A stretch of 64,000 nucleotides of DNA from Promethearchaeota archaeon (GTDB taxonomy: Archaea > Asgardarchaeota > Lokiarchaeia > Sigyniarchaeales > SOKP01), in contig SHMW01000007.1 in NCBI GenBank assembly GCA_008080735.1, positions 21,315 through 85,314 of the forward strand, in the 5' to 3' direction. The position numbers and the translations under genes were made by a program. The notes beneath the pieces were generated by a model. That model searched no databases. It was given only the letters and a program-made list of their open reading frames with translations, and was not told where the DNA came from. The first letter of the stretch is position 1, and every line of letters starts with the position of its first letter. Shown here piece after piece: positions 5,122 through 59,642 of this stretch.

Positions 5122-6786
5122 TTATAATATTATTATACTCAAAAGGGTAAGAAATAACCCAACACAGAGTAAAATGTAATTTAATTTTTTAAATAATGGA
5201 TATTCATTTCTAATTTCTCTTGGGTTTGTTGACATAGTATATCCGCTAAAAGACATTGTAGTGAAGAATCCAATCCATAGAAAAAAGATTAAATTTAGAA
5301 TAACGTAGTATAACGAAAAACTAAGAAACCACGTAACTATTCCAAGGGAAATTGTATTAATAATACCAAAAAACATACTTTTTAGAACAAAATTACGCGT
5401 AAAGTTAGAGAGAGGGTAAAGGAGAATTAATAAAAGATTTGGAAAGAGTATCCAAATTAAAAGATCGGCAGCCATCCAAGTTTTATTGATGATATTCGCA
5501 AGATCTAGGGCAAAAAGGATAAAAAATAGAATAATTAATGGAAGAAGAAATATTTTTCTCAAAAGAAATGTCGTATGTGTTATTCCCGCAGGAATCCGAT
5601 GTCGGAAAGTAAATTTGGCTCTCTTCATTTGCTTAGACTTCTTCTTTGGTTTTTTAATAAGGTATTCCTTCAAGTACCGTGACCATACTGGACCATATTC
5701 AATCTTAAATGGAAATATTTCTGAATGCTCTGGTAAATTGGGTTTTGAAAGCCCTCCGGCAGAAAGCTGGGGTAAAATGATAGTATTATTGTCAGTAATA
5801 TGTTTCACGCCTGTCGCTTCAACCGCTTCAAGTAATTGTTCATTACCAAAATCATCTCCTCTCGCAGCACACCAGACATTAATACCATTAGAGTCAATAC
5901 ATAATATCCATGCATCAATACCTTCTAAATCTCTCATAACTTTAATAAAAGTATATGCATAATTAGCAGTTGCAATAATCGGAGAATAATTATTTGGATT
6001 ACCCGATTTATATAATCCAGGTTCAATCGGAACATTATCAACCTGACCTGTCAATAGGCATCTCCAAATTTTTAGTTGTGATGAAATACCTTTTATTTTT
6101 GGTTTTTCTGGTTTATAATAACCCGGTTCATTCTTTTCTTCTTCAAATGATTTTTCTAATTCTATAGCTTGAATTGATCCGTGAGTCCATTTTTTTATGT
6201 CGGCTATTTTGAAACCAATCGGTTCTAAATAATCTTCAAAATACTCTAAAGGATTAGTTCTCTCAAGTTTTAATCTTCTTAATTTTTTATTATATAACCA
6301 CCTTTTCACCCAGAATGGAACCTTCCAAACTCCAGAGGGAATAAACTCTGCTGCAATTATTAATCGACCATCAGATTTTAATGCTTTCCACGCATTACGA
6401 AGAAAGATTTGTTGTTCCAACGGTCTTAGTTCTGATAACATAAAGGTACTAATGATTAAATCCTGAGAATCCTCTGGAACTTTCAAATCTTTAATTGTAC
6501 CAATTTGATATAGCAAATCTATATTATCTTTTTTTGGCATATTTTTCAAAGCATAGCTAATCATCTGATAATTTTCATCAAGAGCTCTGACTTTAGCGCC
6601 TTTTAACGCAATCTTTAAAGCCAAAATCCCAGTGCCGCACCCAACTTCTAAAACAGATTGATCATATTCAATCTTTTCTAAGATCCAGTTCTGAATTTTA
6701 ATATTTACTCCTTTTGTGAGATTAGTAAACTTTGAATCGTAATTTGCAGGTTCCTGCTCCAATTTTTGCATGTAAGTAACAGCCAT
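5122..6786 (-). CDS. Class I SAM methyltransferase fused to HgcA-like corrinoid-binding and transmembrane domains
   Basis: N-term VLEVGCGTG. Middle PIEPGLY..SPIIATANY..DAWILCIDSNGINVWCAARG..ILPQLSA..YGPVW. C-term TM helices with TMSFSGYT..TNPREIRNEY. Confidence 0.88.
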   Translation of the reverse strand: MAVTYMQKLEQEPANYDSKFTNLTKGVNIKIQNWILEKIEYDQSVLEVGCGTGILALKIALKGAKVRALDENYQMISYALKNMPKKDNIDLLYQIGTIKDLKVPEDSQDLIISTFMLSELRPLEQQIFLRNAWKALKSDGRLIIAAEFIPSGVWKVPFWVKRWLYNKKLRRLKLERTNPLEYFEDYLEPIGFKIADIKKWTHGSIQAIELEKSFEEEKNEPGYYKPEKPKIKGISSQLKIWRCLLTGQVDNVPIEPGLYKSGNPNNYSPIIATANYAYTFIKVMRDLEGIDAWILCIDSNGINVWCAARGDDFGNEQLLEAVEATGVKHITDNNTIILPQLSAGGLSKPNLPEHSEIFPFKIEYGPVWSRYLKEYLIKKPKKKSKQMKRAKFTFRHRIPAGITHTTFLLRKIFLLPLIILFFILFALDLANIINKTWMAADLLIWILFPNLLLILLYPLSNFTRNFVLKSMFFGIINTISLGIVTWFLSFSLYYVILNLIFFLWIGFFTTMSFSGYTMSTNPREIRNEYPLFKKLNYILLCVGLFLTLLSIIIL

Positions 6787-51249: not shown

Positions 51250-51684
51250 CTATAAATCTTCGATAGCATCCTCGAAGGCTTCCATGGCCAATTCGATAAT
51301 TTCTTGGAATGCCATCGCGTCTTGAAGATTTCCCTCGACGGTAATATCGCCAGCCATATACGCGCTCGTAGCATCTACTTCACCATAGAGCATACCCGCA
51401 CCTACATCGCTCGTTGCAGAAAATGTAAAGGAGGGATCATCAATTTCTCCCTCACCGTATTCAAGGGCTCCTTCCTTCGCTTTTACCCAGAACTTCTTAT
51501 CGACATCAGTGAGGACCATTTGGACTAATATATCCATATCTTCCAATTCCTCTTTGAGATCCTCACTTTCCTCTGCTAGTTGCTTATAAAGCTCATATAC
51601 CTTTAAAGCATCATCTGGATCCGCACTTTCTGCACCCGCATCAAATTTTTCTTTCATCTCTTTTAATAAAGCTTCATCTACCAA
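51250..51684 (-). CDS. SCP2 sterol/lipid-binding domain protein (paralogue of 46940-47374)
   Basis: Same length and an identical GEVDATSAYMAGDITVEGNLQDAMAFQEIIELAME block. Confidence 0.9.
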   Translation of the reverse strand: MVDEALLKEMKEKFDAGAESADPDDALKVYELYKQLAEESEDLKEELEDMDILVQMVLTDVDKKFWVKAKEGALEYGEGEIDDPSFTFSATSDVGAGMLYGEVDATSAYMAGDITVEGNLQDAMAFQEIIELAMEAFEDAIEDL

Positions 51685-52049: not shown

Positions 52050-53273
52050 ATGGAATCTCCTGAAGAGCTGAGCTATTGGCGGTTTTGGCCCGTCTTTATT
52101 TTGGCGTTTTTTTATCCCATGAATAATGGTATGATTAATTTGGCAGTCCCAATTCATTATCTTCAAGAGGGATTGAGCACGGGGATCATCGGGATCCTTT
52201 CCGCAGGTACTACAATCTCGTATACGTTTTCGCCAATCCTTTTGAATAAATTCTCTCAGAGAATTAGACGCAAAACAAGTATTACGATCTCCTTAATTGG
52301 GGTATTTTTCTCGGAGATAATCTTCTATTTTACTCTCAATCCCGCGCTATTCCTTATCTCTAGAAGTGTAGAAGGAATATTCATGGGATTATACTGGCCA
52401 AACCTTCAATCTGCCATCTCGGACAATATCTTTCATAAACATAGCTCCTTAACTGCCAAGTACAATATTTCCTGGAATTCCGGAATGCTCAGTGGTTTTT
52501 TATTCGGTGCTCTTCTCTTATTCTCTTTTGGATTTTTAGAGCTCATATTTTATGCTGCACCCATCCTTATCTTTATCAATTTACTCGTTGCGGTTAGTGC
52601 GTTTCAAGAGCCTAAGAAGTTAAATATACATTCGAAGGAGTTTAAAGAATATATAAAAGAGCAAGATATCAATCTTATAAAAGCTGTTGAGATCAAAAAG
52701 GAAAATGATGATTTTAGGAAGCTCTCTTATCCGAGATTATACCCCGTATTAATTATAGTTGCCTACTGCCTCACGCGTGCGTCAGTCAACTTTCTCTACC
52801 CAATCAAATCAGAACTACTCGGATTTGAAGAATATACGGTCTACATTGCCACATTTTTTTTGGCACTATCCCAAGTAATCTCTATGTTTTTGGCCAGTAT
52901 TATGAAACTGCGATATTTTGGACTCGTGCCACCCGTTATGATTGGCATTTTAGTTTTCGTGATTCCAATATTAGCCCTAAATCAAGAGTTTTTCATATTT
53001 ATTATCATGTTTCTCGTGGTAGGATCATGTACCGGTGTACTTTATGGAGTCACTTTGCGAATGATCCTCATGCTCAATATTAAGAACAATACCTCGAAAT
53101 TTTCGGGTATTTTAGAAAGTCTGATAGGAGCTGGGTTTCTGATTACTCCCATCTTTTCAGGATTTATTGCCGCGATAGACCTTAATATTTCCTTTTATGT
53201 ATTGACTTCAATCATCGGGATTCTTTTTGTATTCTCCTTAATTGTTGCCTTCTATAAATTTGAATATAAATAA
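52050..53273 (+). CDS. MFS transporter
   Basis: About 12 TM segments, SQRIRRK loop, RSVEG. Confidence 0.85.
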   Translation: MESPEELSYWRFWPVFILAFFYPMNNGMINLAVPIHYLQEGLSTGIIGILSAGTTISYTFSPILLNKFSQRIRRKTSITISLIGVFFSEIIFYFTLNPALFLISRSVEGIFMGLYWPNLQSAISDNIFHKHSSLTAKYNISWNSGMLSGFLFGALLLFSFGFLELIFYAAPILIFINLLVAVSAFQEPKKLNIHSKEFKEYIKEQDINLIKAVEIKKENDDFRKLSYPRLYPVLIIVAYCLTRASVNFLYPIKSELLGFEEYTVYIATFFLALSQVISMFLASIMKLRYFGLVPPVMIGILVFVIPILALNQEFFIFIIMFLVVGSCTGVLYGVTLRMILMLNIKNNTSKFSGILESLIGAGFLITPIFSGFIAAIDLNISFYVLTSIIGILFVFSLIVAFYKFEYK

Positions 53274-53304
53274 GGCAAGAAAATTGAATAATCATAGAAA
53301 ATAG

Positions 53305-53439
53305 TGGCGCCCGCAGCGGGAGTTCCAAGCGACTTGAAGTAAGTCACAATTTGAACCCGCGTCGGTCTCCTTAACCAGAGCTTCTGGTTTAAACAGGAGT
53401 GACAGTCCCGAATGCTAGACCGGGCTACACTATGCGGGC
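53305..53439 (-). tRNA. tRNA-Asp(GTC) with two non-canonical introns (43/44: 53365-53393; 59/60: 53322-53349), CCA encoded
   Basis: Acceptor GCCCGCA/TGCGGGC, anticodon arm CGGGA-CTGTCAC-TCCTG, T arm GCGGG-TTCAAAT-CCCGC after removing 29- and 28-nt BHB-type introns; 78-nt mature tRNA. Confidence 0.92.
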
Positions 53440-53702
53440 ATCTACTATAAAGTTTATCTTCACTCTGAGTAGATTTGATTAAATCGATTGTACAAAGTAA
53501 AGAAACTTTATAACATTAAATTTTTTAATAAAGTAAAGATTAAAAATTTTCTTATTTTTCTAAAAACCATTCTAATGTTCTAAAAATTCGAATTAATCTA
53601 ATTTTGTTTGAAATGGAGATAAAAAATGCACATCACGAGAAACCCTTACGTGCTAATAAAAATAAAAATAAAAAAAGAATGAAGCTTAGAGTATAAAAAT
53701 TT

Positions 53703-54398
53703 TCACTCTTGTTTGATTACAACTCGTTTGGTAATCCATGTATTCTCAATTTTTTCCTTAAGTTCTTTATCATAAAAAAGCCACTCATCTAATAATCCGG
53801 ATACACCCAAAAAAACCAAACACATGAATCCCAATCGAGCGACACCATATAAAAATATTTGAAATTCATATACTGTAGGAAGACAGCTTAAAACAAACAA
53901 AACAATAAATCCAATCCCAATTTCCACCCCATTTCGAGTTCTTAGTGCGTCCAATAGTAATAGAAATGCTACAGTAAATCCAAATAGATAGATTATCGTA
54001 TCATTATGATTAAGATACAGACAACCTAAAACAATTAGTCCGCTTATGAGTGGAAGTGTGTACAGTATTCGCAAATTCTTTAAATAAGCAAAAAACTGAA
54101 ACATCGCCACAATAACTAAACTAGATATTATGTATCCTATAGTCAAACCTTCTCCTATTACTAAATTGATATATGGATTGAATGCAGATCCCTCACCTTC
54201 AGCAAAATAATTTAATAGGATTGAAGAAGGCGCATTAAATACATAAGTCACTAAAAGGAGGGAAATAAGCATTAGATACAAATTAATATTTATTCTACTT
54301 TTTTTCCAATTTTTATAGGAATAAAGAACAGTTAGTCCTAAAAATAGAAACCATCCAAAATCGAGAATTGAACCGAAGGTTAACGTGATTATTTCCAT
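53703..54398 (-). CDS. Seven-transmembrane protein of unknown function
   Basis: Seven hydrophobic segments by eye; TAATG overlap with the upstream gene. Confidence 0.75.
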   Translation of the reverse strand: MEIITLTFGSILDFGWFLFLGLTVLYSYKNWKKSRININLYLMLISLLLVTYVFNAPSSILLNYFAEGEGSAFNPYINLVIGEGLTIGYIISSLVIVAMFQFFAYLKNLRILYTLPLISGLIVLGCLYLNHNDTIIYLFGFTVAFLLLLDALRTRNGVEIGIGFIVLFVLSCLPTVYEFQIFLYGVARLGFMCLVFLGVSGLLDEWLFYDKELKEKIENTWITKRVVIKQE

Positions 54399-55066
54399 TA
54401 TTTATTACCCCCCGTAGCTTTAAATGGTGTAAAATGGCCTGTGGCAAAAATAATTCCAAAAGCAGAATAACTTAGTGTGATAAGCGCATCAATTATTCCC
54501 ATTATACCCGTTTCATCAAAGAATAAAGTAAGAAACATTATTAAGAAATAAAGCGCGACTCCAAGAGCACCATTATCTTTTAATTTTATTCCGGTATAAA
54601 ATAGAACGACTAAGCTCGCTATTCCACATAAATAAATGAATGGCATTAAAAATATACTTGTCCCCGTATAGAGAAACATTACAAATAATCCAAAAAATAC
54701 GTATAGCGAAGTAAGATAAAAGCTTTCTATTCGATATAGATAAGCGCCTAATACAAGACCTAATGAAACTGCCAAACCTAATCCAAAGTTGTAAAATGAA
54801 AAGTCTTCTGATTCAAACCCAGATAATTCTAAGGAAACGAAAGGCATCTCGTTACCCAATAATTCCCAAATTTCAACCCAGAACACAGAGAGAAAAATAC
54901 AGAGTATTATTAACCGAATATAATTTATTCCTTTTGATCTTCGCGTCTCTTTAATGAATCGTATACTTAAAATTGAAACGATAAGGGGAAATACGATAAA
55001 TACAGAAATATAACGTCCCAGAGATTGTAAAAGATTACTAAACACTAACAAAAATCCTTGGTGCAT
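54398..55066 (-). CDS. Seven-transmembrane protein of unknown function
   Basis: Seven hydrophobic segments by eye; TAATG overlaps on both sides. Confidence 0.75.
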   Translation of the reverse strand: MHQGFLLVFSNLLQSLGRYISVFIVFPLIVSILSIRFIKETRRSKGINYIRLIILCIFLSVFWVEIWELLGNEMPFVSLELSGFESEDFSFYNFGLGLAVSLGLVLGAYLYRIESFYLTSLYVFFGLFVMFLYTGTSIFLMPFIYLCGIASLVVLFYTGIKLKDNGALGVALYFLIMFLTLFFDETGIMGIIDALITLSYSAFGIIFATGHFTPFKATGGNK

Positions 55067-55572
55067 TAAAAGAAACTCCCCCGTGGTTCAAATTCTGATA
55101 AATTAAGTTCATCCCTTTTATCTCTAAATAACTGAGAAAGTGGGAATGATTTACTTCCAATTGTTAAATCTGTTTCTTGATTAAAACTATTATAAATTGC
55201 TTCTTGAAAGTCGATAAAGGTAGGTTCCTCTAAAAGACCATTTTTTCTAAGAAGTCCTATAAATTCTTGAATAATTGCTTTATAGAGGTCAATTTCATCT
55301 TTTTTATTTAATAGAATTGAGAAGGAAAAAAGATCATCTCTCTCCTTCACATTGTCAATAGTAAAAATATACGAGATCATTGTATTTTTCTTATATTTTC
55401 TTTCTATGATATCTCCAGCTTTACAACCAAAAGGTAAGCATTCATTGATCGTTTCTTTCTGATCCTCCGCGTTGCTTATATTAAGTGGGGGATAAGAAAC
55501 AACTAATTCGGGATTTGAATTCACATGTCCTCCTAATTTACATACCACTGATTGTTTAAATCCCATAACCAT
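55066..55572 (-). CDS. uDENN/longin-like protein
   Basis: PELVVSYPP..TINECLPFG resembles the uDENN P.i...fP..i..fcfP.G pattern, followed by beta strands and a helix. Confidence 0.6.
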   Translation of the reverse strand: MVMGFKQSVVCKLGGHVNSNPELVVSYPPLNISNAEDQKETINECLPFGCKAGDIIERKYKKNTMISYIFTIDNVKERDDLFSFSILLNKKDEIDLYKAIIQEFIGLLRKNGLLEEPTFIDFQEAIYNSFNQETDLTIGSKSFPLSQLFRDKRDELNLSEFEPRGSFF

Positions 55573-55727
55573 AATATAAATTAAAATTGTGATTTTAATA
55601 CTTTAAATATGATGATCCAACTATTTTTGTGTGCTATAGTCACGGAAAAAAGACACTAAAAAAAATATCTTAAGGAGTATTGTTTTTACCAAATATAATA
55701 ATATACGAATCAAATTTTCTGATTAAA

Positions 55728-56624
55728 ATGGGTATTAAGAATATATTAAACAAAATTTTATCAAAGGATAAAAAAGTCGTTATTATGGGGTTGGATAACG
55801 CAGGAAAGACGACGATGGTGTCCTTTTTACAAACTGGGACGTTTATAGAACATTCTCCGACAATGGGAAAGCAAGAAACGGTAATGAAGGTTCAAGGTGT
55901 TAAGATTTCAATCGTGGATATGGGTGGACAAAAAGATTTTAGGAGTTTATGGGCAGGAGAATTGGAAGATGCATCGTTTGTAATCTTTATGGTCGATGCG
56001 GCTGATCCACAAAGGTTTGAGGAAGCCAGGAAAGAATTATGGAAGATCTCCCCCTTACTTGAGAAAAAACCATTATTAGTCTTAGCAAATAAATTTGACC
56101 TCAAGGAAGTTGCCTCCATAAATGATATTATGGAAGCAATGGAATTGGACAAATTATCATCTTTTGAGATTATACCAATTTCATGCAAGACGGGATATGG
56201 TATTGTTAAAGCATTTAAAAAGATTTATTTTAAATTAACGGGAAAGGAACTCACAGAAAGTATAAAACCAAAAGCATTTACTATTTTTGACAAAAGTGGG
56301 GTACCATTATCATCCAAATCCAGTGAAGACGTGCTTAAAGGTGGACTTTTTTCAGCGATTACGAATTTCATAAAGGAATCATTCAATACTGAATTAAACC
56401 AGCTAAAATTAGAGGGCCATACCATCATTTTTAGTCGCTCCGAAAATTTACTAGGATCAATCGTGTTAGATAATGCTCAAAAGATAGATCCAAATGAAGC
56501 TGAAGAAAGTTTAAATGAATTGCTCACACACCTCGAGAATATGTGTCCAGAGTTGAAATCGGGAGACGTAGATGGGGATAAAATTTCCTATTTGATGGAA
56601 CAATACGCGACTAACTTAATGTAA
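55728..56624 (+). CDS. Arf-like small GTPase fused to a C-terminal longin/roadblock-like domain
   Basis: MGIKNILNKIL, GLDNAGKTT, PTMG, DMGGQKDFRSLW, ANKFD, SCKTG; C-term FTIFDKSGVPL..LKGGLFSAITNFIKE. Confidence 0.9.
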   Translation: MGIKNILNKILSKDKKVVIMGLDNAGKTTMVSFLQTGTFIEHSPTMGKQETVMKVQGVKISIVDMGGQKDFRSLWAGELEDASFVIFMVDAADPQRFEEARKELWKISPLLEKKPLLVLANKFDLKEVASINDIMEAMELDKLSSFEIIPISCKTGYGIVKAFKKIYFKLTGKELTESIKPKAFTIFDKSGVPLSSKSSEDVLKGGLFSAITNFIKESFNTELNQLKLEGHTIIFSRSENLLGSIVLDNAQKIDPNEAEESLNELLTHLENMCPELKSGDVDGDKISYLMEQYATNLM

Positions 56625-56781
56625 TTCATCACTTATCTTTCTCTCTCTTGTTTTTTTTCTTTTCACTTCTCACTATTCTAGGAACCAGTTATATCTTTTG
56701 CTAAATGAATATGTTTTTATTAAATTATTTATCTATCTTTTCTAAGAAGCATCTTATATTTTATCTAATGACAGACATGAC

Positions 56782-57222
56782 ATGAGTAATTTAAACAATA
56801 TTTATTTCATCCTTAAGAATCTACTTAGCTCAGAAAGCAATAAGTTTAAGCGATATTTAGATAAGTTTTTTGAAAGTATGGTGGAAAAGATAAGCCAAAT
56901 CGAGGAATTCCAGAAAGATTATTCTGATTATGATGATGTATACCAGATATGTATCACAGATATGGATTTTCAATGTTGGTTTCAGATAAGCAGTGGAAAA
57001 CTTAATTATTCAGAGGGATTACATGATACGTACAACATTAAGTTTATAATGGATAGAGAAACACTAGAGAGGATCCTCTCACTCCAAATTCAGCCGTATG
57101 ATGCTTTTATGAAGGGATTTATCAAAATGGATGGCGAAATAATGTATTCCATACGATTTAGGAATTTTACTACTGAATTTATCCAGTATGTCAGGTATTT
57201 CTTGGAAAATGCCTCCTCTTAG
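56782..57222 (+). CDS. SCP2 domain protein (divergent)
   Basis: WFQISSGKL..PYDAFMKGFIKMDGE. Confidence 0.8.
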   Translation: MSNLNNIYFILKNLLSSESNKFKRYLDKFFESMVEKISQIEEFQKDYSDYDDVYQICITDMDFQCWFQISSGKLNYSEGLHDTYNIKFIMDRETLERILSLQIQPYDAFMKGFIKMDGEIMYSIRFRNFTTEFIQYVRYFLENASS

Positions 57223-57338
57223 CGTAAGTAGAGAAAGAATTCCATTTTTGCGTATATATATAAAACAAGATATAGCATTACAATGTCTGAAATGTCTCAA
57301 ATTTCTCTTCAGAAAGTGTCAGATCGTTAAGGAGAAAG

Positions 57339-57453
57339 CGGACCCGGCAGGATTCGAACCTGCGACAGCCCAGACCGGCTCCTAATGGAGTCTCCGAAGG
57401 CGGGTACCCTTTCTGGAGGAAGTTACTCCCTATCCAGACTAGATTACGGGTCC
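57339..57453 (-). tRNA. tRNA-Arg(TCG) with two non-canonical introns (D-loop: 57411-57431; 39/40: 57373-57391)
   Basis: Acceptor GGACCCG/CGGGTCC, T arm GCAGG-TTCGAAT-CCTGC, anticodon arm CCCGC-CTTCGGA-GTGGG after removing 21- and 19-nt BHB-type introns; 75 nt mature without CCA. Confidence 0.9.
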
Positions 57454-57603
57454 ATAAAAAGATTTGAAAACTATATTTATATCGTGCTCTATAGCTAAAA
57501 AAATTTATTGTATAGAACTTGCACCCCTCCTATTTTTAAAATATTTGTTAAATATACGCTCCGAAAAAGAAAAGGAAAAAAGAGCAGAGTAATTGAGTTA
57601 GAA

Positions 57604-58452
57604 TTATTCAGCTCTATTGTGACCCTTCGGCCAATAATAAACCAGAAGAAGTCCCAAAGTAGTGTAAATCAACACCCTACCAATCGAAAGAATAATTTCT
57701 AACCCATAATCCGGAATCATGGCATTAGAGACAAGAGGTTGGAATACATTGTTTGTATAATGAGCAATCATTGCAGGTATGAGAGTTTTAAACTTTACCG
57801 TCATATAAGCTAATACAATGCCAAGACAGGTTGCGAAAAAGACTTGATAAAGCGTAAATAGTGGGTCAGCGCCTACAAACAGATTAATGAGATGAAATAC
57901 CCCAAAAGCAACGCTGTCAATAATAATAGCGTTTTTATTGGAAAAGGTATTCAGAAGCAAAACTAGAATTACTCCGCGAAACGCAATTTCTTCCCAAATT
58001 GCTGGTTGCAAATTGCTTATGAAGGTAAAGTATCCTAGAGCTCCAGTTTCCTGATCGGGTTGTCCAATAATGGTTGATATTTCAAATTGATATGTCCCCA
58101 TTAAGACGTACGGAATCAATGTTGTAAACAATATGATTACTGCGTAAGTTATCCCTATCGAAATATTTCTTAATTTAGGACTGAATTTATTAAGATTTAT
58201 TGAATTGGAATAATCCAATAAGTTCTCGGTGGTTGAGGGCAATTGCAATCCGAATGGAATCAGCAGAAACCATAGGAGGGTTAGTAGAAGCATCTTAGCT
58301 ATCAAATCAACTAATAATAACCAAGGATACGGTAAGGAATAAAATGGAAGCAAGAATACGCGAGGGAGTAACAGAAATCCCCAATAAATTCCGATTATAA
58401 GTGGGATGGTTATTAAAGGTGTGGTTTGTAATTTTTTAATAATAATATTCAT
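57604..58452 (-). CDS. CPBP (CAAX/Abi) intramembrane metalloprotease
   Basis: WEEIAFRG, FGVFH, AHYTNN. Confidence 0.92.
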   Translation of the reverse strand: MNIIIKKLQTTPLITIPLIIGIYWGFLLLPRVFLLPFYSLPYPWLLLVDLIAKMLLLTLLWFLLIPFGLQLPSTTENLLDYSNSINLNKFSPKLRNISIGITYAVIILFTTLIPYVLMGTYQFEISTIIGQPDQETGALGYFTFISNLQPAIWEEIAFRGVILVLLLNTFSNKNAIIIDSVAFGVFHLINLFVGADPLFTLYQVFFATCLGIVLAYMTVKFKTLIPAMIAHYTNNVFQPLVSNAMIPDYGLEIILSIGRVLIYTTLGLLLVYYWPKGHNRAE

Positions 58453-58618: not shown

Positions 58619-59038
58619 ATGATAAAAAGTATATATGTGCTCGATGCGGATAACAAACCAATAATTACCTATAAAAAGAAGGAAAATGAACAAATTGAGG
58701 ATAAGATGCTCCTTAGGTTAACAAAATCTCTAAACCAATTTGCAAATGGAATGGGGGATCATCTTAGCGATTTTGTGATGGGAGAGAATAAATTCTTTTT
58801 TGCGAAAAATAGTATGAGTGATACAAAATACATAATTGAGACGGATACAAGAGTATCGAGAAAGGATGTACGTCCGTTTTTAAAAAAAGTACAGAATTTC
58901 TATTTAAATGAATTTATAGGTACTATGACGATGTCAGAACGGGAAATTAAGCAAGCAAAACAAAATATCCGTTCCCAAATTGAAGAAATGATAGATGAAA
59001 CAGGTTTAAAAATAGAAAACTTCTTAAAAAGTATATAA
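58619..59038 (+). CDS. Longin-like domain protein (tandem paralogue 1)
   Basis: MIKSIYVLDADNKPII start and beta-beta-alpha-beta-beta-beta-alpha-alpha pattern. Confidence 0.7.
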   Translation: MIKSIYVLDADNKPIITYKKKENEQIEDKMLLRLTKSLNQFANGMGDHLSDFVMGENKFFFAKNSMSDTKYIIETDTRVSRKDVRPFLKKVQNFYLNEFIGTMTMSEREIKQAKQNIRSQIEEMIDETGLKIENFLKSI

Positions 59039-59222: not shown

Positions 59223-59642
59223 ATGATAACTAGAATTTATATATTAGAATCAGATAATCGACCTATCATTCAGTATAAAAAGAATGGTGAAAAAAATACA
59301 GATGATAATTTGTTGTTAAGATTGGCAAAATCACTTCAACAATTCGCGAACGGAATGGAAGAAGATCTCAACGATTTTGTTATTGGGGATAAAAAATATT
59401 TTTTCGCAAAAAACGCAATGAGCGGGACCCAATATATTATAGAGACAGAAGCCGAAGTGAAACGGAAGCAAGTATATCCGATCCTTAGAAAGATTCAAAA
59501 TCTCTATATGAACGAATTTATTGGGAGTATGACGATGTCCCAGAAAGAGATCGAAAAGGCTAAAGGACGTATAAAGGAACAGATCGCGTCTAGTTTGGTC
59601 GATAGTAACATGAGAGTAGAAGACTTCCTTAAAACCATTTAA
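59223..59642 (+). CDS. Longin-like domain protein (tandem paralogue 2)
   Basis: Same length (139 aa); shares LLRL.KSL.QFANGM, FFAKN, YIIET, NEFIG.MTMS. Confidence 0.7.
   Translation: MITRIYILESDNRPIIQYKKNGEKNTDDNLLLRLAKSLQQFANGMEEDLNDFVIGDKKYFFAKNAMSGTQYIIETEAEVKRKQVYPILRKIQNLYMNEFIGSMTMSQKEIEKAKGRIKEQIASSLVDSNMRVEDFLKTI

Follow-up and report, generated by a model that had tools for sequence, protein, structure and literature searches.

Do four adjoining genes of a Loki-type Asgard archaeon, encoding an Arf-like GTPase, a small longin-fold protein and two seven-transmembrane (7TM) proteins, work together as a GTPase switch at the membrane, and which part would then act on which? The genes, all of them intact, lie at positions 53703-56624 of the window, by which we mean the whole 64,000-nucleotide (nt) stretch of contig SHMW01000007.1 that was analyzed. 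Asgard Arf GTPases have been crystallized and bind membranes in a nucleotide-dependent manner, and their native guanine nucleotide exchange factors (GEFs) and GTPase-activating proteins (GAPs), as well as their native membrane partners, are stated to be unknown (PMC11914678). A first-pass annotation of the window had read the cluster as a heterodimeric 7TM sensor coupled through a DENN-like adaptor to the GTPase. We found that the four genes are kept together across related genomes, and we lean, without great confidence, towards reading them as an Arf switch that is bound to the membrane, has a longin-type GAP and uses the 7TM pair as its platform.

Three of the genes are read from the minus strand, in the order C168, TM_B, TM_A. 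C168 (55066..55572) encodes a soluble protein of 168 amino acids (aa) with a predicted, NPRL2-like longin fold and is our candidate GAP. TM_B (54398..55066) encodes a 222-aa 7TM protein whose predicted fold resembles that of a G-protein-coupled receptor (GPCR), and TM_A (53703..54398), called from the list of open reading frames (ORFs) and from topology, encodes its 231-aa paralogue. Each junction is the sequence TAATG, a 1-nt overlap, and the chaining that had been annotated was verified at both. The GTPase gene, ArfRb, lies on the plus strand beyond a divergent, A+T-rich spacer of 155 bp (55573..55727). Its longest ORF opens at TTG 55680; a start at ATG 55728 gives a 298-aa protein whose stop codon ends at 56624. 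Because 13 of 14 orthologues begin with MG(I/V/L), the other beginning with MS, we take ATG 55728 and not TTG 55680 to be the true start, and the 155-bp distance to C168 follows from that choice, in agreement with the gap and the MG start annotated earlier. The same annotation had regarded this region as a shared divergent promoter. The divergent spacer does exist, but it is peculiar to this copy, other modules being arranged otherwise.

To establish how the genes are arranged elsewhere, we used C168 as the query against 41 related genomes and inspected about 12 kb of sequence surrounding each match. The C168, TM_B, TM_A and ArfRb families were co-located in at least 17 modules, which come from 14 genomes of three Lokiarchaeial families in one order (f1, f2 and f4), and they occurred in three gene orders. 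The 11 other modules of family f1 carry C168, TM_B, TM_A and the GTPase gene on one strand (C-B-A-G). In families f2 and f4 the GTPase gene leads and is followed by C168, TM_B and TM_A, tightly packed (G-C-B-A). The window copy alone has the GTPase gene inverted, divergent from the other three. The distances between C168, TM_B and TM_A ranged from -4 to +9 nt in all modules read. Every one of the 21 strong TM_B matches in the relatives was on a contig with another module gene, which was C168 in 20 cases and only the C-terminal domain of the GTPase in the remaining one (genome G018); outside the module, the 41 relatives yielded no TM_B-family gene, and C168, TM_B and the ArfRb C-terminal domain were either co-present or co-absent across them. 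The first-pass annotation had staked its proposal on the module being syntenic elsewhere, and syntenic it is. The linkage is not a product of chance, and we consider it very probable that the four genes work together.

The genome that holds the window also carries a second, diverged copy of the module on another contig (C17), and two of the relatives likewise have two copies. The nearest relative of the window C168, TM_B and TM_A was in each case module G003b, which indicates that modules duplicate as blocks. In pairwise comparisons of paralogous modules the GTPase, at about 70% identity, evolves slowest, and the 7TM proteins, at 20-34%, evolve fastest. In family f1, ArfRb usually lies 125-270 nt from TM_A and probably has its own promoter. 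A third, weak C168-like match in the same genome lies outside the window (G000:C15:52868-53212, minus strand, E 7.8e-6), inside a 302-aa ORF. Single in-frame stops were seen in three module copies, a TAG in C168 of genome G014 (G014:C9, L019), a TAG in TM_B of G012 (G012:C45) and a TAA in TM_B of G024 (G024:C1); judged from their sequences, either decay of the copies or errors of assembly could account for them.

By the Pfam cut-off and the G1-G4 motifs, ArfRb classifies as a member of the Arf family. The protein matched Pfam Arf (PF00025) at E 4.5e-36 (124.4 bits, cut-off 22.3), and the G domain (residues 1-182; 55728..56273, plus strand) contains the P-loop GLDNAGKT as well as DMGGQ and NKFD. 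Its closest solved structures were 8oun/8oum, each labeled 'GTP-binding protein' (E 1e-31), followed by eukaryotic Arl2/Arl3. The N-terminal helix is amphipathic, with hydrophobic residues at i, i+3, i+4, i+7 and i+8 (I3, I6, L7, I10, L11), a pattern that is kept in 14 orthologues, and Gly2 is kept in 13 of 14; an Arf-like GTPase with such a helix had been annotated from the start, and that description was borne out. The catalytic glutamine of DMGGQ is present and, like other Arfs, the protein has no arginine of its own. Matches to Pfam Gtr1_RagA (23.4 bits, cut-off 22) were far under the Arf score, and those to Pfam G-alpha (30.7 bits, cut-off 48.8) were sub-threshold.

Residues 183-298 of ArfRb (56274..56624, plus strand; about 116 aa plus the stop) form an extra C-terminal domain, conserved in 19 orthologues, that is probably longin-like, although the leads are weak. 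Four of the 19 members matched Pfam Fuz_longin_1 below threshold (best E 0.072), and a language model (Atlas) gave a longin lead with a score of 0.86. The domain, alone or as a profile, found no match among PDB sequences, LokiRag entries included, and hhalign detected nothing between it and the C168 family. Thus the fused domain of the first-pass annotation is present, while its longin or roadblock nature is a matter of faint resemblance. From its sequence, ArfRb would be Rag-like in architecture and Arf-like in kind.

C168 belongs to no Pfam family, giving only two chance-level matches at E 0.08, and profiles of its family found only chance matches among PDB sequences. All 68 homologue clusters are labeled 'hypothetical' and, where the source is named, it is an Asgard archaeon; most labels read Lokiarchaeota/Promethearchaeota, some Sigynarchaeota and two Hodarchaeales. 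We therefore turn to structure prediction. An AlphaFold2 model built from 76 sequences, with a predicted local distance difference test score (pLDDT) of 85.5 and a predicted template modeling score (pTM) of 0.80, arranges its elements in the longin order, bb-a-bbb-a-a, and ends in a hairpin and a helix. Fold matches of the model were scored with VIA (Z) and Foldseek. NPRL2 of human GATOR1 (8fw5_B) came first with Z 13.4, at an rmsd (root-mean-square deviation) of 3.1 over 144 residues, model residues 4-159 aligning with chain residues 6-163. It was followed by yeast Npr2 (Z 11.1), the Lokiarchaeal longin 8yqg (11.0), DENND10 (9.8), FLCN (9.3), DENND1A (8.9) and Mon1/Ccz1 (about 8), the GEF longins including DENNs spanning 7.5-9.8; the Foldseek match was 8adl_S (E 9.6e-6). 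On the strength of this model we are confident that C168 has a longin fold. The protein had been called uDENN/longin-like, and the longin part of that label stands. It is not specifically DENN: DENN proteins match through their longin part only (Z 8.9-9.8, against 13.4 for NPRL2), the chain ends at residue 168 after the longin, the hairpin and one helix, and, since it is too short and cDENN and dDENN are missing, we rejected C168 as a DENN protein.

The GAPs NPRL2/Npr2, FLCN and SMCR8 work through a longin-domain arginine finger (PMC12290439; PMC12999518), and longins of this kind are marked by an invariant arginine in the b4-b5 loop and by a GP motif where the b1-b2 loop ends, before strand 2 (PMC12290439). 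Arg78 of C168, read from the AGA codon at 55339..55341 on the minus strand, falls between model strands 63-72 and 80-88, in the b4-b5 loop, and is a candidate arginine finger. It was invariant in 76 close C168 sequences, and R78 and P47 were the only invariant residues in a 24-sequence alignment that included 15-25%-identical relatives from other Asgard families. In the distant relatives the GP-motif column reads G-L, or G-P in four sequences. A 2025 paper reported that some Asgard longins have this arginine and a GP motif and asked whether their partners are ArfR or Rag (PMC12290439); the gene linkage that we observed offers an answer to that question.

It is likely, in our estimation, that C168 acts directly on ArfRb. 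That it does so as a GAP, rather than as a GEF or an adaptor, we propose only tentatively. The DENN-like, and hence GEF-like, adaptor role given to it in the first-pass annotation does not sit well with the invariant Arg78 in the b4-b5 loop, which points to a longin of the GAP type. Nevertheless, most characterized longin regulators are GEFs or scaffolds, and with Mon1-Ccz1, TRAPP, DENN and Ragulator as models C168 could be a longin-type exchange factor or an adaptor, which turns the GTPase on or bridges it to the 7TM pair, its arginine being structural or used in binding. DENND10, DENND1A, Mon1 and Ccz1 are indeed among its fold matches, and the GP motif is inexact in its subfamily. We consider this alternative unlikely, given that both NPRL2 and Npr2 score above all GEF longins and that an invariant arginine in that loop is the hallmark of GAP longins (PMC12290439).

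As had been annotated, each of the two membrane proteins has seven helices by hydropathy. The positive-inside rule puts the N-terminus of both outside and the C-terminus inside. Neither matched any Pfam family at E values up to 1. Their relation to each other, which the earlier annotation had suspected, was missed by BLASTP (E 1.8, not significant) and found by hhalign, with a probability of 97.3% and E 2.1e-11 over 166 columns; moreover, the TM_B profile matched adjoining TM_A genes at E 5e-8 to 7e-6. By these profile comparisons TM_A and TM_B are true paralogues. The motif said to be shared before TM6, (K/R)..NG..G, is real in that the TM5-TM6 loops are aligned by hhalign, although it had been written loosely: TM_B reads K163-D-N-G..L-G169 and TM_A reads R153-T-R-N-G157...G161. 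The TM_B family is narrow and unnamed, with 100 representatives in 1.84 billion proteins by exhaustive HMMER search.

In sequence neither protein falls within a GPCR family, but the AlphaFold2 model of TM_B (84 sequences, pLDDT 93.7, pTM 0.89) matched the adhesion receptor chain ADGRL3 (8jmt_A) best in VIA, with Z 16.1 and an rmsd of 3.3 over 189 of 222 residues. Further matches included ADGRV1 (13.8), CD97 (13.7), GIPR (12.4) and LYCHOS/GPR155 (11.0), and the 50 matches listed were all 7TM membrane proteins, nearly all of them GPCRs. A GPCR-like fold is therefore moderately supported for TM_B by its model, and such likeness speaks to neither descent nor function. The Atlas model of TM_A resembled taste receptors and 7TM diguanylate cyclases, with template modeling scores of about 0.6. 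The disclaimer of GPCR or rhodopsin homology in the first-pass annotation thus holds for sequence and needs amending for the predicted fold of TM_B. Microbial rhodopsin was rejected, neither protein having a lysine in TM7 for retinal to bind, as had been pointed out. We also rejected a PAQR/alkaline ceramidase identity for TM_B, which lacks a conserved histidine or a His/Asp/Ser metal site and has its conservation in the loops and tail.

The two proteins are conserved on the inside of the cell and variable on the outside. In TM_B the cytoplasmic loops and tail carry 1.7-2.7 bits per column, with the third intracellular loop (ICL3) highest at 2.67, compared with 0.8-1.5 for the outer loops; the corresponding values for TM_A are 2.45-2.64 for the cytoplasmic loops and 1.32-1.68 for the outer loops. 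The most conserved residues of TM_B (G169, D164, K163, F215 and R51) are in the cytoplasmic loops or the cytoplasmic tail. L85, Y105, Y113, P116, G157 and W221 are invariant in the TM_A family alignment, and the most conserved positions, Y105, Y113, G157 and W221, face the cytoplasm, the last of them in a conserved cytosolic tail, ..E.KI.NTWI.K, that contains the invariant tryptophan. Such a pattern in the alignments fits a conserved intracellular partner and does not appear to fit a transporter or an enzyme of the membrane core.

These same features admit a second alternative, in which the 7TM pair acts as the exchange factor for the Arf-type GTPase, as a GPCR does for G-alpha, and C168 is a GAP like the regulators of G-protein signaling (RGS). 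ICL1-3 and the tail, where the conserved residues cluster while the outer loops vary, make up the surface that GPCRs use for G proteins, TM_B has a GPCR-like predicted fold, ArfRb shows the sub-threshold G-alpha match given above, and the module holds no other GEF candidate. A shared fold, however, shows no function, we found no membership of a GPCR sequence family and no evident ligand pocket, and the conservation is in the loops and not in the helical core. We regard this account as rather improbable. Equally a long shot is the bolder idea of a prokaryotic receptor-G-protein-GAP triad, in which the 7TM pair would set the nucleotide state of the Arf and the NPRL2-like longin would be an arginine-finger off-switch; if true, the triad could share descent with eukaryotic GPCR/G-alpha or with the LYCHOS-GATOR1-Rag nutrient-sensing axis. 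Least probable of all is that TM_A and TM_B serve an independent function, for example in transport or the handling of lipids, with the GTPase and longin controlling their placement or turnover or the genes being merely co-regulated. ArfRb in family f1 does stand apart with a probable promoter of its own, and alkaline ceramidase and Ost-alpha appear low in the TM_B fold lists. Against this account, the membrane core of TM_B contains neither a conserved His/Asp metal site nor conserved polar residues, its top positions are in loops, no member of its family was seen outside the module in the 41 relatives, and the linkage survives three rearrangements.

We also examined more distant relatives. 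In other families of the phylum the C168-family profile found weaker matches (E 1e-10 to 1e-23), at up to nine copies per genome, and we read 20 such loci in families f9 and f31 (L033-L051). In 12 of the 20, the longin gene is followed by a gene for a 175-190-aa Arf-type GTPase without the C-terminal domain and then by one for a 268-314-aa protein with 6-8 predicted transmembrane helices. Two further loci have a truncated form of this arrangement, and in two a pair of membrane genes, whose products have 6-7 predicted helices, comes after the longin gene. Both of the cassette GTPases that were checked against solved structures matched eukaryotic Arf1 at about E 1e-30, and a maximum-likelihood tree, whose outgroups were 20 other small GTPases, all from the genome that holds the window, placed the cassette GTPases with the ArfRb G domains on one side of a long branch (support 96/92), apart from those 20. 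The cassette membrane proteins carry the motifs FFRKRTxGT, NRHILxDN, RKRGLQ and YLGWIMPDW..KSWI. Judged from these sequences, the association of longin, Arf-type GTPase and multi-pass membrane protein is ancient and extends widely through the Asgards; its Loki version is the form with four genes, in which the 7TM proteins are a pair and the GTPase has a C-terminal domain.

Two kinds of fusion were also found. In genome G005 (same genus, 92% complete) the sole C168-like gene encodes a 275-aa fusion of a longin with the ArfRb C-terminal domain (L021:5573-6400, minus strand), which keeps the longin arginine and lacks the G domain, and no TM_B-family gene was found in that genome. On sequence grounds this may be either a hint that the longin and the C-terminal domain pair with each other or a deletion remnant of a co-directional operon. 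The second fusion involves a domain of about 60 aa, CPxC..CxHxF.AYVD, with no match in Pfam, which forms a C-terminal extension of TM_A in family f4 (L025, L028, L030). In two same-genus genomes it is N-terminal on a truncated C168-like longin without the arginine (BLASTP E 3e-12; L022:6017-6700, minus strand, and L023 at about 5800-6481, plus strand). Since it is fused to either, the TM_A tail and the longin share an accessory domain. About 1.8 kb from a CPxC..CxH-longin fusion is a gene for a 246-aa 7TM protein that weakly matches the TM_A profile (hhalign 66%).

Gene linkage, predicted folds, paralogy and conservation are what we observed, and from them we infer GAP activity, all contacts between the proteins, a heterodimer and any sensing role. 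In the membrane-bound Arf switch that we favor, ArfRb would sit on the membrane in its GTP-loaded form, held by the N-terminal amphipathic helix. C168, as a stand-alone longin of the NPRL2/FLCN/SMCR8 type, would switch it off by inserting Arg78 into the nucleotide pocket, and might pair with the longin-like C-terminal domain of ArfRb as NPRL2 does with NPRL3. TM_A and TM_B would be made by translational coupling with C168 and would form the platform, probably as a heterodimer, whose cytoplasmic loops and tail would serve the soluble partners as docking sites and determine at which place, or upon which stimulus, the switch cycles.

Several findings weigh against this picture. Longins in general are more often GEFs or adaptors than GAPs, and no sequence method ties C168 to NPRL2, FLCN or SMCR8, Pfam and PDB searches having placed it in none of the NPR2, Folliculin and SMCR8 families. 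The equivalence of R78 with Arg78 of NPRL2 is drawn from loop position and a collinear alignment range, not from residue-level superposition, and the GP-motif column reads N-P in the C168 subfamily (S19-N20-P21). For TM_B, Foldseek gave a weak match (E 0.011, template modeling score 0.64), and helical bundles reach about Z 13 by common packing alone, so that a Z of 16 is moderately above that level. The membrane family of the distant cassettes (alignment A6) was not significantly similar to TM_A or TM_B by hhalign (1.4% and 12.5%). Lastly, many related genomes, some of them reported to be about 100% complete, gave no match for any of the three families searched for, so the module is dispensable.

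The genes around the module in the window are of other kinds. SCP2 lipid-transfer-domain genes flank it at 51250-51684 (minus strand) and 56782-57222 (plus strand), with Pfam SCP2 matches at E 8.6e-13 and 3e-7. A gene for an Rce1-like CAAX-type membrane protease (57604-58452, minus strand, Pfam E 8.8e-17) lies about 1 kb from the GTPase gene. We rejected prenylation of the GTPase by way of this protease and put their proximity down to coincidence, because ArfRb does not end in a CAAX sequence and the protease gene lacks synteny with the module. Farther on, two tandem 139-aa paralogues, 55% identical (58619-59038 and 59223-59642, plus strand), have a strand and helix pattern that looks longin-like by eye; neither matched Pfam, and a PDB search returned chance matches only. 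None of these neighbors (the two SCP2 genes, a major facilitator superfamily transporter, the CAAX protease and the two 139-aa genes) was syntenic with the module in the relatives. ARAGORN found no tRNA in 52500-58000, including the proposed intron-bearing sites at 53305-53439 and 57339-57453, although non-canonical introns could escape it.

The module is built from types of part that have already been reported in Asgards, and in our literature searches we found no paper that describes the assembly itself, the neighborhood of C168, TM_B, TM_A and ArfRb. What it provides is a single locus with matched candidates for the native partners of an Asgard Arf: a probable GAP with a single key residue, R78, and two receptor-shaped membrane proteins. 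The candidate proteins are all small and can be tested together, which makes the question of native Asgard Arf regulators directly testable. If the contacts hold, they would bear on how eukaryotic membrane GTPase signaling was assembled (Arf, Rag/GATOR and perhaps G-alpha/GPCR) and on what Arf proteins did before there were organelles.

Compared with published Asgard Arf-family GTPases (ArfR, 10.1101/2024.02.28.582541; AArf, PMC11914678), the ArfRb G domain is of the same kind and shares the amphipathic N-terminal helix, while the protein differs in its extra C-terminal domain of about 116 aa. Term searches of the main texts of those two papers gave no match for neighboring genes, operons or transmembrane proteins. 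According to Tran et al., the GTPase genes of MK-D1 do not, in general, share an operon with roadblock or longin genes, and operons offer few clues for Asgard GTPase genes (PMC10933270). On the longin side, 14 Asgard longins have been classed as 'FLCN/SMCR8-type' (PMC12290439). Liu et al. described an operon in Asgards that combines genes for a LAMTOR1-like roadblock protein, a Rab-like GTPase and a DENN protein; they also described 'NPRL2-like' longin families among their Asgard clusters of orthologous genes (asCOGs), fused to two-component domains (10.1101/2020.10.19.343400). Their operon, like our module, joins a small GTPase to the longin/roadblock superfamily in a conserved Asgard neighborhood, but its GTPase is Rab-like and not Arf-like and, so far as the main text describes it, there is no 7TM partner; the NPRL2-like longins as described there are two-component fusions and not linked to Arf and 7TM genes. 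A 2026 preprint mentions 7TM and GPCR-like structural clusters in Asgards.

Outside the Asgards, bacterial MglA-MglB and the actinobacterial conservon pair a Ras-like GTPase with a roadblock partner. The conservon also includes a membrane sensor, which is kinase-like, unlike the 7TM bundle of the module. Eukaryotic GPCR/G-alpha/RGS signaling likewise combines a receptor-shaped 7TM protein with a GTPase related to Arf and with an off-switch that donates an arginine, a role that is putative here; the module differs in having no GPCR-family sequence membership, no G-beta/gamma and two 7TM paralogues instead of one. The C9orf72-SMCR8 and FLCN-FNIP complexes are longin GAPs whose arginine finger has a candidate counterpart in Arg78 of C168, and Arf proteins are the targets of C9orf72-SMCR8, but these are heterodimers of large longin-DENN proteins, unlike C168, whose subfamily has N-P in place of the GP motif.

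The closest comparison is with GATOR1/SEACIT (NPRL2-NPRL3-DEPDC5) acting on RagA/Gtr1. The module lacks NPRL3, DEPDC5, Ragulator and TOR, its GTPase is Arf-type and not Rag-type by sequence, and C168, at only 168 aa, is without the C-terminal domain of NPRL2 and has no detectable sequence similarity to it. Yet the catalytic longin of GATOR1, the one with the arginine finger, is the best fold match of C168, and the client GTPase of GATOR1 carries a C-terminal domain of longin/roadblock type, as the C-terminal domain of ArfRb probably is. LYCHOS/GPR155, a GPCR-like lysosomal protein, binds GATOR1. A membrane protein with a GPCR fold, predicted in the case of TM_B, is thus found in both settings, and LYCHOS itself is among the fold matches of TM_B, at Z 11.0.

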